From positions 1-64,000 of the forward strand of contig JAZDJQ010000004.1 of NCBI GenBank assembly GCA_043803765.1: 64,000 nucleotides of DNA. Direction: 5' to 3'. This DNA comes from Candidatus Iainarchaeum sp. (lineage in GTDB: Archaea > Iainarchaeota > Iainarchaeia > Iainarchaeales > VGJJ01). Position numbers and translations under genes: made by a program. The notes under the pieces were generated by a model that saw nothing but the letters and a program-made list of their open reading frames with translations, was not told where the DNA came from and did not search any database. Positions 3,155-39,597 of this stretch are shown piece after piece. Numbering within the stretch: position 1 is the first letter of the stretch; every line of letters starts with the position of its first letter.

Positions 3155-4660
3155 ATGCCCCTCCCCGAAATAACCAACCTGGCCCAACGCCGAGGACTAT
3201 TCACTCCAAGCGCAGAAATATACGCCAATGCACCCGCAGGATTTTGGGATTATGGAAATGAAGGAACACGCATCAAACGAAGACTCGTGGAACACTGGAG
3301 AAAAACACTCATTCACAAAGAAGGAAACATCGAAATAGAAGGAAGCACACTCCTACCTGAAATCGTATTCAAAGCATCCGGACACTTGGAAAACTTCAAC
3401 GACCCGCTTGTAATATGTGAAACATGCAAAACACCCTACCGCGCGGACAAACTCATTGAAGAAAAACTAGAACACGAAATACCCGAAGGAGCCAGCCTTG
3501 ATTTCTTCGACCAAAAAATAGCCGAACTCAAACTCGTTTGCCCAAAAGACAAAAAACCATTTGGACGCACAACAAAGTTCAACCTCATGATGCAAGTCAA
3601 CATCGGAGCAACACACGGAAATGTATCCTATCTGCGACCCGAAGCATGCCAAAGCATATTCCTAGCATTCCCCCGCATATGGAAAAGCGGACGCATCAAA
3701 TTACCCATCGGAATAGGACAAGCGGGAAAAGCCTACCGAAACGAAATCGCCCCACGACAGGGATTACTGCGAACAAGAGAATTCGAACAAATGGATATGG
3801 AGATATTTTTCAATCCACGAAAAATAAATGAAATAGAAAAATGGGAAGAAGTCAAAGAATATGCACTGAATCTTTACTTATTGTCCGATAAACAAACACA
3901 CGCTATCACGTGCGAAGAAGCAGTCGAACAAAAAATAGTATCCGGAAAAATAATCGCATACTATCTCGCACGCACCCAACAATTCTTCGCATCACTCCAT
4001 ATCCCGCTAGAAAAGATACGATTCAGGGAATTAGAAAAAGAAGCACGAGCGTTTTATGCAAGGGAAACATGGGATTTGGAAGTGCAAATGGACAACGCAT
4101 GGATTGAGCTTGCCGCATGCAATTACCGAGGAGAACACGATTTGAAAACACACGGAGAAGAAAGCAAACAGGATATAACAATAAAAGAAGACGGGGAAAA
4201 CGAAAAATACGTCCCCCACATTTTTGAAATATCCATCGGAGTAGACCGGACATTCCTTGTCATGCTGGATGCCAATCTTAGAAAAGAAATACGAGGAACC
4301 GAAGAACGAACATATTTGGACTTACCAAAAGAAATAGCACCTTATGATGTAAGCGTGTTCCCACTCATGAAGAAAGACGGACTCGCTGAACACGCAGAAG
4401 AATTAGCCCACCACTTACGCGGACAAAACATCGCAGTAATATACGATGAAACAGGAAGCATTGGAAAACGATACGCCCGAACGGATGAAATAGGAATACC
4501 CTACGCCATCACCGTCGATTACCAATCCCTACAAGACCGAAGCATCACCCTGCGTGAACGAAGCAGCATGAAACAAAAACGAGTGCAAGTGGATGACCTA
4601 GACGAAATATTCTGGAAGTTCTCCACGAACCAAAAAAAATTCGAAGACCTGGCAGACTAA
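3155..4660 (+). CDS. glyS: glycine--tRNA ligase (alpha2 type)
   Basis: ASGH, YLRPEACQ, RNEIAPRQGLLRTREFEQ, GVDR, GSIGKRYARTDEIGIP anticodon-binding domain. Confidence 0.97.
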   Translation: MPLPEITNLAQRRGLFTPSAEIYANAPAGFWDYGNEGTRIKRRLVEHWRKTLIHKEGNIEIEGSTLLPEIVFKASGHLENFNDPLVICETCKTPYRADKLIEEKLEHEIPEGASLDFFDQKIAELKLVCPKDKKPFGRTTKFNLMMQVNIGATHGNVSYLRPEACQSIFLAFPRIWKSGRIKLPIGIGQAGKAYRNEIAPRQGLLRTREFEQMDMEIFFNPRKINEIEKWEEVKEYALNLYLLSDKQTHAITCEEAVEQKIVSGKIIAYYLARTQQFFASLHIPLEKIRFRELEKEARAFYARETWDLEVQMDNAWIELAACNYRGEHDLKTHGEESKQDITIKEDGENEKYVPHIFEISIGVDRTFLVMLDANLRKEIRGTEERTYLDLPKEIAPYDVSVFPLMKKDGLAEHAEELAHHLRGQNIAVIYDETGSIGKRYARTDEIGIPYAITVDYQSLQDRSITLRERSSMKQKRVQVDDLDEIFWKFSTNQKKFEDLAD

Positions 4661-33804: not shown

Positions 33805-34167
33805 TTAGGGGGATTGGTTCAATCTAGGTTTAAGCGTGTGAAGCGTACCACTCGTTTGAAGAGCATGAACCTCAACCGAATCATTGTGAATAATCGTAAG
33901 AAAAAGAAGAGAAGCAATCAAAGCATCCTTCCCAATATGAGAACAACGAAAAATACCAATACCATTTTGAGCGTTATAGGAAATGAAACGATAACGAAAA
34001 GTAGGAAAACCCAATATTCCAAAAGAATGCACCAAATGAGAATAAAATGATTTTTCAACTAATGATTTTTCAATAGGAGAAGGAGAAAATACACGAAAAA
34101 GAATATAGCGTTTCTTCCCACGCAAACTTAGTGGAATCGTCGCAATACGCACTTTTTTTTGCTTCAT
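33805..34167 (-). CDS. rnp2: RNase P protein component Pop5/Rpp14
   Basis: LRGKKRYILF, GIFRCSH, TSGTL; superoperon position. Confidence 0.88.
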   Translation of the reverse strand: MKQKKVRIATIPLSLRGKKRYILFRVFSPSPIEKSLVEKSFYSHLVHSFGILGFPTFRYRFISYNAQNGIGIFRCSHIGKDALIASLLFLTIIHNDSVEVHALQTSGTLHTLKPRLNQSP

Positions 34168-34691
34168 TTCACTACCCCGCGAGATAAAACATACCCTAAG
34201 TAATGCAGAAGGGAAGCCTGCTCAACAGGGGAAATACACTCTTCCTCTTTCCGGGCAAAACTTCCAACATGCAAGGGAATCTTTTCCTTGCTCAACAAAA
34301 AGGCTATTTTCCTAAACTCCATAAGAGAATTAGTATTTTTTTGTGCGAATGCTTCCCGCAAATCACGCAGAGAAAAAACCACTTCTAATGAATTATTTTT
34401 TGCCCCCGTCATCCACGCATAATCAATAATAGGAGGACCATTCATGTTAACGTGAACAAACGATAAGCCGGATAATTTCAATGCGTCAACTGCATTCTGT
34501 AAAGAGTGAAGCGTCACCATGCAGGGAATCTTTTGAGAGGCACAGCGCTGCAATTCGGCACGATCCAAAACAGGAAGAAAAACCATTTTAGTATGAAAAG
34601 GAAGCGTGTCCATTTGCAACTCATGAACAGAAGAATACAATACTATTTTCCTACTGCGTGTAACGAGTGCTGATGGAAAAATGAAATCCAT
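34164..34691 (-). CDS. rnp3: divergent RNase P protein component Rpp30
   Basis: Position between rpl15e and pop5; AKNNSLEVVFSLRDL, IPLHVGSFA..ISP resemble the Rpp30 C-terminus. Confidence 0.62.
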   Translation of the reverse strand: MDFIFPSALVTRSRKIVLYSSVHELQMDTLPFHTKMVFLPVLDRAELQRCASQKIPCMVTLHSLQNAVDALKLSGLSFVHVNMNGPPIIDYAWMTGAKNNSLEVVFSLRDLREAFAQKNTNSLMEFRKIAFLLSKEKIPLHVGSFARKEEECISPVEQASLLHYLGYVLSRGVVK

Positions 34692-34725
34692 GCAGAAAAA
34701 ATGAGAAAAGAGTTTAATTGCCTGA

Positions 34726-35337
34726 CTATTTTCCCTGCCGAGCATGTGCACGCAAAGAAGGACGAATCTTTTCCGTACCGCGGGAACCTGCCGGTTTTCC
34801 TAAACCACGATTCTTCTGCCCGGCGGATGTCTTACCTCGAAAAACGCGACCGCCGTGCTGGGGTTCCATAATCCAATTCAAATCCTTGTCTTTCATCACT
34901 CTTGGATTGCGAGGGTCTACCAAAATAACTTCAAAATAGTGTGCACGACCGTCCACTCCCACTTTGTAACTGTTCAACACTTCCATATTAGGATAATGCG
35001 TTTGCGCACGCTCCTCCGCCATGACTTGAATACTTTTCTTCCGGGTCATGGAAGCAATACCCATACGCTTAGGCTTGCGTGCACGACGAGGACGCAAAAA
35101 CAATCCTCCCCCCCTGCGGACACGAACACGTGCAACCGTAACGCCTTGAATCGCCTTGTATCCTAACGCACGGGCACGCGTAATATTGAATGGCTTATCC
35201 ACTTTTACTACGGCACCAAGAGCACGACGATATTCCATCATACGGGAACGATAAATAAGACCGTAATCCGTCTCCCCGGATTGGTCGTGTTTCCACTCAC
35301 GCTGAATAGTCTGTTGAACGTGCTTGGTAAAAGTCAT
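34726..35337 (-). CDS. rpl15e: 50S ribosomal protein eL15
   Basis: RARALGYKA.QG, AEERA..YPNMEVLNSY, FEVILVDP, GRVFRGKTSAG. Confidence 0.97.
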   Translation of the reverse strand: MTFTKHVQQTIQREWKHDQSGETDYGLIYRSRMMEYRRALGAVVKVDKPFNITRARALGYKAIQGVTVARVRVRRGGGLFLRPRRARKPKRMGIASMTRKKSIQVMAEERAQTHYPNMEVLNSYKVGVDGRAHYFEVILVDPRNPRVMKDKDLNWIMEPQHGGRVFRGKTSAGQKNRGLGKPAGSRGTEKIRPSLRAHARQGK

Positions 35338-35520: not shown

Positions 35521-36543
35521 ATGCACTGCCAACGATGCACACGAGAAGGAGTTATCATCTTGCCCTACGGCCCTCATTTCCTGTGCGAGGAACACTTCCT
35601 CTATTTCTTTGAACACCGCATCCGAAACGTGACCCGAACGAATGCTTTTTTCAAAAAAGAAGATCGAATCGCTGTTGCCGTATCGGGGGGAAAAGACTCG
35701 GTAGTAGCACTCAATCTTATCAAAAAAATAATGCCACGAAACGAAATAATAGGAATAAGCATTGATGAAGGAATTGAGGGTTATCGAAACAAGGCGATTG
35801 AAGAAGCAATAAAAAATTACAAAAAACTAGACATTCCCTACAAAATTGTCCAACTCAAAAAAGAAATAGGAAACACCATGCAGGAAATCGTGCAAAAAAC
35901 AAACGAAAACAAATGGAAGGAAAACAGTTGCACTTTCTGTGGAGTATTCAGGAGAAAATACATCAACAAAACTGCACGTGAAATAGAAGCGGACAAATTG
36001 GTAACAGGACACAACCTGGATGATGAAGCGCAGAGCATATTGATGAATATCACCACGAATCGGATGGAAAGACTATCCCGAATGGGGCCCAAAGTGAAAA
36101 CCATGGAGTTAAAGGAATGGGTTCCCCGAGTAAAACCATTGTACGACAGCCCTGAAGAAGAAGTAGAACTGTTTGCACGAATGATGAGGTATCCTTTCTA
36201 TGGGGACGCATGCTGTCCATTCTCACACGGAGCAGACCGAAATATTTATCGAATGATGATTGACCAAATGGAAATGAAAAAACCGGGAAGCAAACAGGGA
36301 ATCATCAAAAGCTTTTTACAAATGAAACCATTCATCGAAAAAATGGACTCCGCTCAACAATTACAATCCTGCAGCACGTGCGGAGATTTAAGCTCCCAAC
36401 AAAAATGCCAAGCATGCCAATTCGAAAAACGCATACGTGAAACGGTTATCCGCTCGCCCAGTACAAACCCGCATTCCGACTCTCTGGAAAAGAAAAAAAA
36501 ACAAAATGAATTAGTGAGTCCTGCGACCGGTCACTGCGGGTGA
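35521..36543 (+). CDS. tRNA 2-thiolation protein (TtuA/NcsA, TIGR00269-like)
   Basis: CxxC..CxxH zinc finger, SGGKDS PP-loop, CTFCGVFRR, TGHNLDD, C-terminal CxxC..CxxC. Confidence 0.92.
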   Translation: MHCQRCTREGVIILPYGPHFLCEEHFLYFFEHRIRNVTRTNAFFKKEDRIAVAVSGGKDSVVALNLIKKIMPRNEIIGISIDEGIEGYRNKAIEEAIKNYKKLDIPYKIVQLKKEIGNTMQEIVQKTNENKWKENSCTFCGVFRRKYINKTAREIEADKLVTGHNLDDEAQSILMNITTNRMERLSRMGPKVKTMELKEWVPRVKPLYDSPEEEVELFARMMRYPFYGDACCPFSHGADRNIYRMMIDQMEMKKPGSKQGIIKSFLQMKPFIEKMDSAQQLQSCSTCGDLSSQQKCQACQFEKRIRETVIRSPSTNPHSDSLEKKKKQNELVSPATGHCG

Positions 36544-37193
36544 AGTTGTGTTTTTTTCCCTAATGACTTTATAATATCCTTTAGCCTCGGATCCCTGCTG
36601 AGTTTTCCTCGAATGAGATAAAACAGACTCCGCACCTGCTGCGGGGTGAGCCCCATCTCACTGATCTCCTTTTTCGTCGGAAAATAACCTTTCAACATGA
36701 CATGAACAAAGAAATTGTGTTGTTTAGAGCTTAGGATTTTCTTGGCTACCTTCTTGACAAAATCGAGGGAATCCTTCCATTCCCCCACACGCGAAGGATT
36801 AGTAACCGGGCGAGCCCAAAGAGAACGAATACCTTCTCCCGTTATCTCTCTCGAGGCTGTTCTCTGTTTTTTCATCCTCTTGAGCCACTTGGGAAGCTCC
36901 GAATTCAGAACGATATCGATAAATGTGGTAACCGCCCCACGCGAGGGGTCATACTTTCCAATATATCGCAAAAGCATATTCAACGCTTCCTGTTCCAATT
37001 CCCTGCCTTTAATACCCACTCCTTTCGCACGAGAGTAATAATCATTTTTCTTGCAAAAAGACCTAACATATGAAACATGCTCGGGCAACGTTTCACGAGT
37101 CAGGATTCTTACCCCTCCCCCGCTGGGACGTGGAACCACAGGTCCTCTTTTTCCACTCTTTCCCCGCACAACCCGTTGACGTCGAGGAATCAT
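36531..37193 (-). CDS. sigma-70-like protein (region 2 + region 4) with Arg-rich N-terminus
   Basis: ELEQEALNMLLRYIGKYDPSRGAVTTF resembles region 2; LSSKQ..TKKEISEMGLTPQQVRSL..IRGKL resembles region 4 HTH; AGGTGG SD upstream. Confidence 0.75.
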   Translation of the reverse strand: MIPRRQRVVRGKSGKRGPVVPRPSGGGVRILTRETLPEHVSYVRSFCKKNDYYSRAKGVGIKGRELEQEALNMLLRYIGKYDPSRGAVTTFIDIVLNSELPKWLKRMKKQRTASREITGEGIRSLWARPVTNPSRVGEWKDSLDFVKKVAKKILSSKQHNFFVHVMLKGYFPTKKEISEMGLTPQQVRSLFYLIRGKLSRDPRLKDIIKSLGKKTQLHPQ

Positions 37194-37279
37194 ATCCAAT
37201 CCACCTGATGAAATACCATCCGTCCGTTAGATGGACAATTGACCTTAAATGCTTTCCTTGCCACCCTCATTAGGAAGAG

Positions 37280-37351
37280 AGCCCCGTAGTCTATCGGCTA
37301 GGATGCCACCTTGACATGGTGGAGGGGGCAGTTCGATTCTGCCCGGGGCTA
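37280..37351 (+). tRNA. tRNA-Val(GAC)
   Basis: AGCCCCG/CGGGGCT acceptor, CCACC-TT-GAC-AT-GGTGG anticodon arm, GGCAG-TTCGATT-CTGCC T arm. Confidence 0.93.
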
Positions 37352-37487: not shown

Positions 37488-38945
37488 ATGCCCAACCAGG
37501 AAGCTATCGTAGAGAACATCCGAAAACTCAAGGAAATGGGATTAGAGGACGAAGACCTTGTTCATGAATTGGAGAATAGTGGCATCCCCAAAATCCAAGC
37601 GGAACGATGGGTAAGGGAATCAAAAAACCTCACAACCAATGAAAGACCACACGAAGAAAACATTACTCCCAAACTCATTCCACCCAAACAAGAAACCATT
37701 CCAACCTATTCCGCACCGCGCCCGCAAGAATCAATTGAAAAATTATGGGAAAAAGGAATTTTGGCAACAGTCGATTCAAAACTATCCCAAATGGAGAAAT
37801 TGAAAAAAGAATTAGACGACGTGATAGAAAAGCGAGTAAATGCACACTACGAGGTTATGGAAAAAAAACTCGAAACATTATTTCAAGCACAACGAGAACT
37901 TTTTCGCTTTAAGATGGACGCACAGATGGACGCCAAAGTAAAAGACGTGGAAGAAATACTCAACCAAAAAATAGACGAAATACGAAACATCAACACGGCA
38001 ACACAAGAAGACTTGCAACGGATTAAAGGACAGAAAATGATCATCACCGAACTAGTAGCTGACTTAAGCACCAAAACAAAACAATTGGAAGAAACACGAA
38101 GAGAAATAATGGATGAAACGGCAAAAAAACTAGAAGAACTACAAGAAAAAATAGACGCTTTACTTGATGAGACGGATGAACGCATCCGAGGAGTAGAACA
38201 CCGGGCAACCAAAACACTAGAATTAGAAGAAAAAATCACCATCGGATTAACCGAACAGGTAGAAACACAAGCAAACCGAATACTCGAAGACCGAGTAAAA
38301 GACTTGAGACAAGAAATAAAGGACGAAATCATTCAACTCAAAAAAATGGGAGCAGACCTATCATCCAAAGATATTCAAGCAACACTGCAGGAGTTTGCCA
38401 ATATCAATCTAGAAATGAAAAAAACAAAACAGGATATCGAAGGGATGGTATTACGCAAAAGTACGGATATTGATGCTGCGTTAGAAAAGAAAATGATGGA
38501 CGTAGACAAAATAGTAAACACAAAAATGGAAACCATTGTCACTATGAAAGAAAAAGATTTCTTCAAACGCATCGAAGAACAAGCAGGAGAAATGGCTACC
38601 GCCCAAAGGGAATTAGGACAAAAACTATTAGAAGGAGAAACAAAAATACAGAATCTAGACACGTATACAAAACAATTCCTTGAAACGCTCAAAAAAGCAA
38701 ACCTAGAAAGAGAAGACCAGCTCACCGATTTTAGGAAAAAACTAGAAGAATTCGAATCACGCGCAGGAGAAAAAATGGCACTTCTAGAATCACGAACCAA
38801 ACAACTCGATATTATTGTAAGCCAATTATCCCAACTCATGATTCAATGGAAAACACAAATGGATACAACAAAAGAAACAAATAAAAAACAAGAAAATCCA
38901 GCAACACAAGAAAAGAAAACAGGATTCGGAATATTCGGAAAATAA
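37488..38945 (+). CDS. long coiled-coil protein with C-terminal FGIFGK motif
   Basis: Start at MPNQEA; about 380 aa of E/K/Q heptads; no ATPase motif. Confidence 0.85.
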   Translation: MPNQEAIVENIRKLKEMGLEDEDLVHELENSGIPKIQAERWVRESKNLTTNERPHEENITPKLIPPKQETIPTYSAPRPQESIEKLWEKGILATVDSKLSQMEKLKKELDDVIEKRVNAHYEVMEKKLETLFQAQRELFRFKMDAQMDAKVKDVEEILNQKIDEIRNINTATQEDLQRIKGQKMIITELVADLSTKTKQLEETRREIMDETAKKLEELQEKIDALLDETDERIRGVEHRATKTLELEEKITIGLTEQVETQANRILEDRVKDLRQEIKDEIIQLKKMGADLSSKDIQATLQEFANINLEMKKTKQDIEGMVLRKSTDIDAALEKKMMDVDKIVNTKMETIVTMKEKDFFKRIEEQAGEMATAQRELGQKLLEGETKIQNLDTYTKQFLETLKKANLEREDQLTDFRKKLEEFESRAGEKMALLESRTKQLDIIVSQLSQLMIQWKTQMDTTKETNKKQENPATQEKKTGFGIFGK

Positions 38946-39074: not shown

Positions 39075-39146
39075 GGGCGCTTGGCGCAACGGTAGCGCGC
39101 TTCCATGGCATGGAAGAGGTTGGGGGTTCAAATCCCCCAGCGTCCA
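39075..39146 (+). tRNA. tRNA-Ala(GGC)
   Basis: GGGCGCT/AGCGTCC with G3-U70, CTTCC-AT-GGC-AT-GGAAG, GGGGG-TTCAAAT-CCCCC. Confidence 0.95.
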
Positions 39147-39241
39147 TCATATATTTGGATATCGCATCATGATGAATTCTGACAAGCATTTCTTTTGACC
39201 GGGCGCGACTTTTCTTTTCTAAAGAAAAGGGGTGCGTTCCG

Positions 39242-39257
39242 AATCCCCCAGCGTCCA
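39242..39257 (+). repeat. 16-bp direct repeat of the tRNA-Ala 3' end (att-like)
   Basis: AATCCCCCAGCGTCCA at 39131-39146 and 39242-39257. Confidence 0.85.
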
Positions 39258-39258
39258 C

Positions 39259-39597
39259 TTACTCTTTTTTTGAAAAACACGCGCAGGGCTTTCCACGGAG
39301 CCGACGCTTTTGTTCAGCAAGTGAATCAATCAACTCATCCTGGAAAGCAAGCCCTTTGGCGTGGCGCTTTTCCAAAGGAGATTTGTGCGCGCAGCCCCGT
39401 TTCTCCATTTCCACAACCAACGCATCATGACGCTTAAATAAGGCACGCAGTTTCCCCGCCCAGCGCTTTGTTTCGGGATGATGCAAATAACCTTTCTTTT
39501 TGTTCACATAAATTGACCAGATGGCATGCAGTTCGCGGTGCTCCCCAAGCAAGTGGACGCGACAAAGCCGACTAGGTGGAATATCCCAGATACGCAC
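39259..39597 (-). CDS. pyrimidine dimer DNA glycosylase / T4 endonuclease V family
   Basis: MRIW..LCRVHLLGEHRELH, HPETKRW, RHDALVVEMEKRG..HKSPL. Confidence 0.9.
   Translation of the reverse strand: MRIWDIPPSRLCRVHLLGEHRELHAIWSIYVNKKKGYLHHPETKRWAGKLRALFKRHDALVVEMEKRGCAHKSPLEKRHAKGLAFQDELIDSLAEQKRRLRGKPCACFSKKE

Follow-up and report, generated by a model that had tools for sequence, protein, structure and literature searches.

The stretch of DNA analysed here, hereafter the window, comprises 64,000 nucleotides (nt) of the archaeon Candidatus Iainarchaeum sp. (positions 1 to 64,000 of contig JAZDJQ010000004.1; coordinates are window positions unless another contig is named, and the genome is referred to as G000). 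At 36531..37193 of its reverse strand lies a gene for P0001, a protein of 220 amino acids (aa). Judged from its sequence, this is a real, expressed-looking gene that encodes a strongly diverged, two-domain member of the sigma-70 superfamily. The coding sequence was delimited in the list of open reading frames (ORFs) and recognized by the TIGR02937 profile, by hhalign and by a hidden Markov model (HMM) of our own. It ends with a TGA stop codon (36533-36531, -) and, in the longest form given by the ORF list, opens with a TTG codon (36531..37199, -; 222 aa). A Shine-Dalgarno-like AGGTGG, read from the sequence at 37206-37201 (-), precedes the ATG at 37193 by 7 nt and is itself immediately followed by the TTG, which makes the ATG the likely start. 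The database copy of the protein likewise has 220 aa, and the limits 36531-37193 proposed in a preliminary description of this DNA agree with both.

The two neighbours of the gene are also the borders of the slot in which it sits. Its 3' end overlaps by 13 nt a convergent gene for a PP-loop ATPase of the tRNA-thiolation type (35521..36543, +; Pfam ATP_bind_3, 2.7e-12). On the other side, 86 nt separate it from a divergent tRNA-Val(GAC), placed by ARAGORN at 37280-37351 (+), the tRNA already noticed in the preliminary description. With one convergent and one divergent neighbour, the gene is therefore monocistronic, and no anti-sigma gene stands beside it. A TATA-like element (TTAAAT/ATTTAA on either strand, 37245..37250) is located between the two genes, some 30 nt ahead of tRNA-Val and, on the opposite strand, 54 nt ahead of the ATG of P0001. 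The block that contains it is conserved in three of the six same-genus loci compared: CCTTAAATGC is common to G000, G001 (where the slot is empty) and G010 in alignment A5, and the block reads ATTAAATGC in G008. The same CCTTAAATGC block is present in an independent metagenome contig of 1819 nt, L076. The element is most likely the promoter of tRNA-Val, and it may be used in both directions and thereby serve P0001 too. A bacterial promoter scan found no bacterial-type promoter on the P0001 strand.

Direct comparisons place P0001 below the curated cut-offs of the sigma families. Pfam Sigma70_r2 (PF04542) gives 13.2 bits (E 0.079) for a cut-off of 24, and the direct Pfam search returns no match to Sigma70_r4. 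TIGR02937, the NCBIfam sigma70-ECF model, gives 25.2 bits (E 1.1e-5) for a cut-off of 42.9, with a full-length alignment of P0001 residues 44-201 to profile positions 13-162 of 165. Against PDB chains, phmmer with P0001 gave nothing meaningful, and a word-index search returned P0001 itself alone. Among 1.84 billion representatives, phmmer retrieved at E<=0.001 three proteins including P0001 itself. The closest relative is P0002 (221 aa, 42% identity, E 7.6e-34), which scores 38.8 bits on TIGR02937, and the other is P0003 (168 aa, 31% identity). With a profile of these three sequences, the word-index search recovers four proteins, the new one being P0004, which carries Sigma70_r2 and r4_2.

By transitivity, the homology of P0001 to the sigma-70 superfamily can nevertheless be regarded as secure, since its subfamily aligns to same-genus proteins that exceed these cut-offs. 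In a whole-genome search of 61 genomes, six match P0001 at E<=0.01, its own included, and four of the six are among the 16 genomes of the same genus. Three of the four same-genus matches score 61.7, 46.4 and 66.3 bits on TIGR02937, above the cut-off, and the fourth 30.8; three also exceed the cut-off of Pfam Sigma70_r2. The subfamily formed by P0001, P0002 and P0003 aligns with the same-genus sigma-like proteins in hhalign with a probability of 98.9% (E 2e-17) over 165 columns, corresponding to residues 30-199. The alignment lays residues 154-199 of P0001 on region 4 of L002, a same-genus protein that passes Pfam Sigma70_r4 (PF04545) with 31.4 bits for a cut-off of 24.1. In the reverse direction, an HMM built from the same-genus set without P0001 finds P0001 (E 9.4e-16, 55.9 bits) among the 3863 ORFs of its own genome, where its sole other match is a member of its training set. 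In the search against Sigma70_r2 and Sigma70_r4 profiles that the preliminary description had advised, P0001 itself stays below the cut-offs that same-genus relatives exceed.

Profile and feature comparisons lead to the same superfamily. The three-sequence profile, A2, reaches region 2 of RpoS (E 0.0065) and SigI6 (E 0.0086) in the PDB, and a profile of eight sequences reaches FliA, SigA, SigH, WhiG and RpoE. Scanned over genome contigs, A2 gave four weak bacterial sigma matches only. In the Atlas, P0001 lies at a feature similarity of 0.97 to Sigma70_r2 clusters, and the ten best family-bearing matches share family or clan with the best of them, Sigma70_r2, a uniformity that one shuffled protein in three shows as well. 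By structure, nine of the ten nearest clusters bear Sigma70_r2 or Sigma70_ECF, and the tenth bears only Sigma70_r4, on 53% of its members. Taken with the TIGR02937, RpoS and hhalign alignments, P0001 reads as a diverged sigma2-linker-sigma4 protein with the layout of the extracytoplasmic function (ECF) sigmas and without region 3, in agreement with the preliminary description.

The region-2-like domain spans residues about 30-110 (36864..37106, -), as placed by profile A2 against RpoS and SigI6, by the sub-cut-off Pfam Sigma70_r2 match, by hhalign and by invariant columns. The region-4-like helix-turn-helix (LSSKQ...IRGKLS) spans residues 154-199 (36597..36734, -) according to the TIGR02937 alignment and hhalign, and L154 is the sole invariant column across eight sequences. 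Both strings in which the preliminary description had seen parallels to sigma factors are present in the translation, ELEQEALNMLLRYIGKYDPSRGAVTTF at residues 65-91 and LSSKQ...TKKEISEMGLTPQQVRSL at residues 154-191. In region 2 of P0001, the best-conserved block is KYDPSRG..TTFI. It corresponds to region 2.2, where KYDPSRGAVTTF aligns to KFDPERGFRFSTY of RpoS 7vf9_F with the motif ..FD..rG..F.TY., and K80, D82, P83, S84, T90 and F91 are invariant in all three subfamily sequences. In the HMMER alignment of the subfamily profile, F91-I-D-I-V95 stands opposite Y-A-T-W-W of RpoS (PDB 7vf9_F), the very correspondence that the preliminary description had read, and P0001 therefore has no aromatic region 2.3 melting residues (Y..WW) of the kind found in groups 1-3. 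Since ECF sigmas likewise differ at this position, the I-V pair does not exclude group 4. The Q-E pair of an ELEQEA motif is present in P0001 and L002 and absent from P0002 and P0003.

The genome that carries this gene is archaeal, as the preliminary description had taken it to be. G000 amounts to 1.02 Mb in 19 contigs, with a completeness of 93.5% and a contamination of 1.5%. Genes for proteasome alpha, Pop5, L15e, Rrp4/41/42 (exosome), SBDS, aIF5A, LSm and MetRS flank P0001. The genome encodes TBP, TFB and a single Rpb1-type subunit, archaeal Rpo1N; it therefore has a normal archaeal initiation set and no bacterial core enzyme in cis. That P0001 stems from a chimeric assembly or from bacterial contamination of the bin, for which slightly atypical GC and codon usage could speak, is scarcely credible. 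The gene is embedded in an 80-kb contig that carries archaeal core genes, contamination is estimated low, and the start region combines a Shine-Dalgarno motif with a TATA-like element shared with an archaeal tRNA. A chimeric assembly is unlikely because the gene order recurs in same-genus genomes and because the independent contig L076 has the same junction of sigma-like gene, tRNA-Val and coiled-coil gene.

G000 contains three sigma-like genes. Besides P0001, one is located at C5:545-1288 (L011), between tpiA and the gene of the type-2 isopentenyl diphosphate (IPP) isomerase (fni). The other, at C9:31688-32287 (L007:1114-1713), encodes 199 aa with a region 4 over the Pfam cut-off. This last protein scores 45-48 bits for region 4, and its N-terminal half has no region-2 model match.

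In bacteria, region 2.2 is the surface that binds the core polymerase and does not bind DNA, and its conservation in P0001 invites the question of a polymerase partner. P0001 could serve the archaeal RNA polymerase as a functional initiation or specificity factor, acting alongside or instead of TFB/TFE at some promoters. Its region 2 would then dock on the clamp coiled-coil of Rpo1, the homologue of the bacterial beta-prime clamp helices, and promoter DNA would be gripped by region 4 together with the basic tail. The invariant region 2.2 residues fit such a role, as does the Q-E pair kept in P0001 and L002. The Rpo1N clamp coiled-coil is present, with a mean column identity of 87% over 30 sequences of the order, and the sigma-like family is broadly distributed over the order and multi-copy, a pattern suggestive of a use within the archaeal cell. 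We nonetheless consider this role unlikely: the Q-E pair is lost in P0002 and P0003, the melting aromatics are replaced by I-V, most same-genus genomes do without the gene, so high a rate of substitution would be unusual for a subunit fitting a conserved polymerase surface, and TBP and TFB are present. Folded together as a predicted complex, with no controls, residues 28-118 of P0001 and a clamp fragment of Rpo1N (alignment A4) gave a score of 0.00, which is evidence for neither side.

The protein is distinguished by its charge. Its N-terminal tail (residues 1-28; 37110..37193, -) is basic, rich in proline and glycine and without acidic residue, and the first 30 residues contain nine K/R, no D/E and ten P/G, so the leader announced in the preliminary description is real. 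Among the 905 ORFs of the genome, only 36 carry a net charge of at least +8 on the first 30 aa. Such basic tails, with net charges of +6 to +9, are found again in P0002 and, next to tpiA, in the sigma-like proteins of G002, G014 and G005 (L002, L003 and L006); the tail is weaker, at +3, in the tpiA-adjacent sigma-like protein of G012. Over its 220 aa, P0001 reaches a net charge of +30, or 0.131 per residue, which puts it at the 97th percentile of the 905 ORFs and in the range of ribosomal proteins (0.143 for L15e, for example).

One of the two roles envisaged in the preliminary description was that of an effector that is exported and acts on the RNA polymerase of another cell, a bacterial host or neighbour, by binding it. 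All that favours this role is the bacterial ancestry of the fold, together with the symbiotic lifestyle presumed for small-genome archaea. P0001 has no signal peptide and no hydrophobic segment (Kyte-Doolittle hydropathy over 15 aa peaks at 0.31 within the first 45 residues and at 1.10 in the whole protein). Its sequence, when read for a Tat-like motif with a subsequent h-region, shows none, and no secretion gene is adjacent. Nothing thus points to export by Sec or Tat, and P0001 has also lost the melting residues. Moreover, an internal role fits better than export because the genome holds three paralogues, one of them in the tpiA-fni housekeeping slot conserved in the genus. We regard an exported effector as highly improbable.

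Same-genus genomes share the gene order L15e, PP-loop ATPase, tRNA-Val and coiled-coil gene, and the PP-loop ATPase is 66-72% identical in 10 of the 11 such genomes searched. Between the ATPase and tRNA-Val, however, the content varies. In G001, G011, G006 and G008 the gap, of up to about 230 nt, has no room for a gene, and in three genomes the slot holds cargo unrelated to P0001. This cargo is a 354-aa ORF of no family in G004 (L022:2508-3572) and a 221-aa ORF of no family with an inverted partial second copy of the ATPase in G010 (L023:2552-3217 and 3346-3960). In G005 (L025:2523-3614) it is a NUDIX gene split in two frames together with a PemK/MazF-like toxin preceded by a small upstream ORF. 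No ORF of at least 70 aa resembling P0001 or P0002 occurs in the nine loci from other genomes (best E 0.47). The slot is thus an accessory-gene islet of the genus, and P0001 an accessory gene.

Contig L076 shows the gene in a second organism. It carries the coiled-coil gene, tRNA-Val and the divergent gene of P0002, arranged as in the window; the coiled-coil proteins are 64% identical, the sigma-like proteins 41-42%. The two orthologues are both intact (220 and 221 aa). Since the synonymous rate (dS) in their codon alignment is saturated, only the non-synonymous rate (dN, 0.69) and the identities of 0.48, 0.58 and 0.34 at codon positions 1, 2 and 3 are usable. Identity that is highest at position 2 and lowest at position 3 points to a coding sequence under some constraint, and P0001 can be read as a real, maintained and fast-evolving gene.

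The variability of the slot raises the possibility that P0001 was brought in beside tRNA-Val as cargo of a mobile element or virus and now serves that element or persists as a slowly decaying remnant without host function. The toxin and split NUDIX gene of G005 and the family-less ORFs of G004 and G010 would suit such an origin. The codon usage of P0001 lies at the 3.6th percentile of 769 ORFs and its G+C content at third codon positions (GC3) at the 89th. The first Atlas feature match and several others are phage sigma-like clusters, and there is a weak PHROG sigma match (E 0.0065). Against this stand the content of the 740-bp slot, in which no integrase, tRNA repeat or other element gene was found, and the lack of any att-like tRNA-Val repeat flanking the gene. 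None of 50,697 phage records gave a tblastn match, and the matches in IMG/VR cover only generic region 2, at 29-38% over about 50 aa. It also speaks against this possibility that the gene has remained complete, with its length unchanged, in two organisms that share 64% identity in the flanking protein, and that its substitutions follow a coding-type pattern. A mobile origin of this kind seems to us improbable, though it deserves a place beside the polymerase factor among the alternatives.

Several features around the slot can be reported in their own right. The coiled-coil protein encoded directly after tRNA-Val (window 37491-38945, +; about 484 aa) belongs to no Pfam family, contains internal periodic repeats of 138 nt and is 50-64% identical across the genus; the 544-aa ORF listed for it begins within tRNA-Val and is too long. 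Further on, a 34-nt stretch at 39224-39257 is a 76% copy of the 3' end of tRNA-Ala (39113-39146), 111 nt downstream of it and just before a pyrimidine-dimer glycosylase gene (39259-39597, -); it may be the remnant of an integration site. On the other side, a 195-aa ORF at 34164-34751 (-) without Pfam family lies between the Pop5 and L15e genes, a position that in other archaea is, we presume, often held by another protein subunit of RNase P.

The second paralogue offers a contrasting case of genomic position. A sigma-like gene occurs between tpiA and fni in all five genus genomes examined (G000, G002, G005, G012 and G014). Its products (L002, L003, L005, L006 and the protein of C5:545-1288) are homologous to P0001, similar in length, fast-evolving and provided with a basic tail. 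They differ by their locus, whose position is conserved in the five genomes, whereas the slot of P0001 is mostly empty or holds other cargo. Over ten pairs at the tpiA-fni slot, TPI averages 74% identity and the sigma-like protein 25%. Between G014 and G012, TPI is 91% identical (dN 0.078, dS 1.30) and the sigma-like protein 23% (dN 1.09), a non-synonymous rate about 14 times that of the neighbour in the one pair measured. At the nucleotide level, blastn between L003 of G014 and L005 of G012 finds flanks that are 81-82% identical on both sides and no match across the gene of about 760 nt (L003:1284-2043; L005, reverse, 1330-2087). Very weak constraint, diversifying selection or allele replacement could each produce this divergence.

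Sigma-like genes are frequent in the order. When 151 genomes, G000 included, were surveyed with the TIGR02937 profile, 35 exceeded its cut-off and 80 reached E<=1e-5; only the former count is specific because archaeal control genomes also match the profile below its cut-off. Within the genus, 14 of 15 genomes have a TIGR02937 match, and several have two to five. Sigma-70-like proteins in DPANN archaea were reportedly first described by Rinke et al. in 2013. Such earlier reports, to which the preliminary description referred, are indeed found: a passage of one review credits the first archaeal sigma factors to Rinke et al. 2013 (PMC6126073), and Castelle et al. 2021 (PMC8204110) describe sigma-70 genes (fam00359) in DPANN that are especially prevalent in Woesearchaeota and are not mis-binned. 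The same authors state that anti-sigma factors were not found in DPANN (Castelle et al. 2021, PMC8204110). Sigma-70-like genes in DPANN are thus already published, and P0001, whose genome is counted as DPANN-type by its size and by the literature, adds one very diverged example to this known population.

What P0001 shares with these DPANN proteins is a sigma-70-class gene with archaeal genes around it, a small genome that also encodes TBP and TFB, and the lack of an adjacent anti-sigma partner. Its flanks, the same-genus synteny and the independent contig likewise show that it is not mis-binned. It differs from them by its far greater divergence, below all curated cut-offs and with two phmmer relatives in 1.84 billion representatives, by its unusual basicity and by its tie to the variable tRNA-Val slot. 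With the bacterial group 4 (ECF) sigmas of TIGR02937 it has in common the sigma2-linker-sigma4 layout, a length of about 200 aa and the absence of regions 1.1 and 3. In these bacterial systems the cognate anti-sigma factor is usually encoded beside the sigma gene. P0001, in contrast, has no adjacent anti-sigma gene and no bacterial core enzyme in its genome, scores below the cut-off and combines a basic N-terminal extension with a very basic body. Phage sigma-like proteins (PHROG 17569, 351 and 1740; viral Sigma70_r2 clusters of the Atlas) resemble it in being short, diverged and endowed with region 2, and the Atlas clusters are its nearest by language-model features (0.97). P0001 differs from them in that PHROG is matched only at E 0.0065, no phage is matched by tblastn and no viral context surrounds the gene.

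Having considered these alternatives, we lean towards P0001 acting inside the cell as a domesticated DNA-binding regulator, the other role envisaged in the preliminary description, through its helix-turn-helix and its basic surfaces. A domesticated regulator is the most likely role because the cell has TBP, TFB and one archaeal RNA polymerase and lacks a bacterial core enzyme. The region-4 helix-turn-helix, possibly joined by region 2, would bind DNA in a sequence-specific manner, and the very basic tail and body (net +30) would add a non-specific affinity for nucleic acids. The general look of P0001 is that of a nucleic-acid-binding protein, with a charge like that of ribosomal proteins. Beyond the identity, context, distribution and evolutionary rate of the protein, which can be observed directly, it is this DNA binding and this regulatory role that we infer.

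Several points weigh against a regulator of this kind. Because the best-conserved block is region 2.2, which in bacteria binds the core enzyme, some contact with a polymerase could persist. An origin in a mobile element, with a function unrelated to host regulation, would likewise suit the unusual codon usage and the variability of the slot. P0001 itself falls below the curated cut-offs for Pfam region 2 and TIGR02937 and has no direct Pfam region-4 match. Finally, its structural matches in the Atlas have template modelling (TM) scores of 0.34-0.41, all below 0.5, and its stored model has a predicted local distance difference test (pLDDT) value of 0.67 and a predicted TM score (pTM) of 0.41.

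On the accepted view, the initiation of transcription in archaea relies only on TBP, TFB and TFE. A bolder proposal would extend a polymerase partnership from P0001 to all the basic, fast-evolving sigma2-sigma4 proteins of the order, as true alternative promoter-specificity factors of the archaeal RNA polymerase that dock on the Rpo1 clamp coiled-coil. We hold this to be decidedly unlikely. If it were true, the basic tail would reach into the DNA or RNA path, a bacterial-style mode of initiation would exist beside TBP/TFB, and the fast replacement of copies would be the mark of a conflict, with viruses or hosts for instance.

More generally, P0001 bears on the question of why many small-genome archaea keep, multiply and rapidly change sigma genes of the bacterial type. 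The locus provides a syntenic pair of orthologues at the tRNA-Val slot. The analysis adds a second paralogue in the tpiA-fni housekeeping slot, found in each of the five genus genomes examined, and strongly basic N-terminal tails on several sigma-like proteins.

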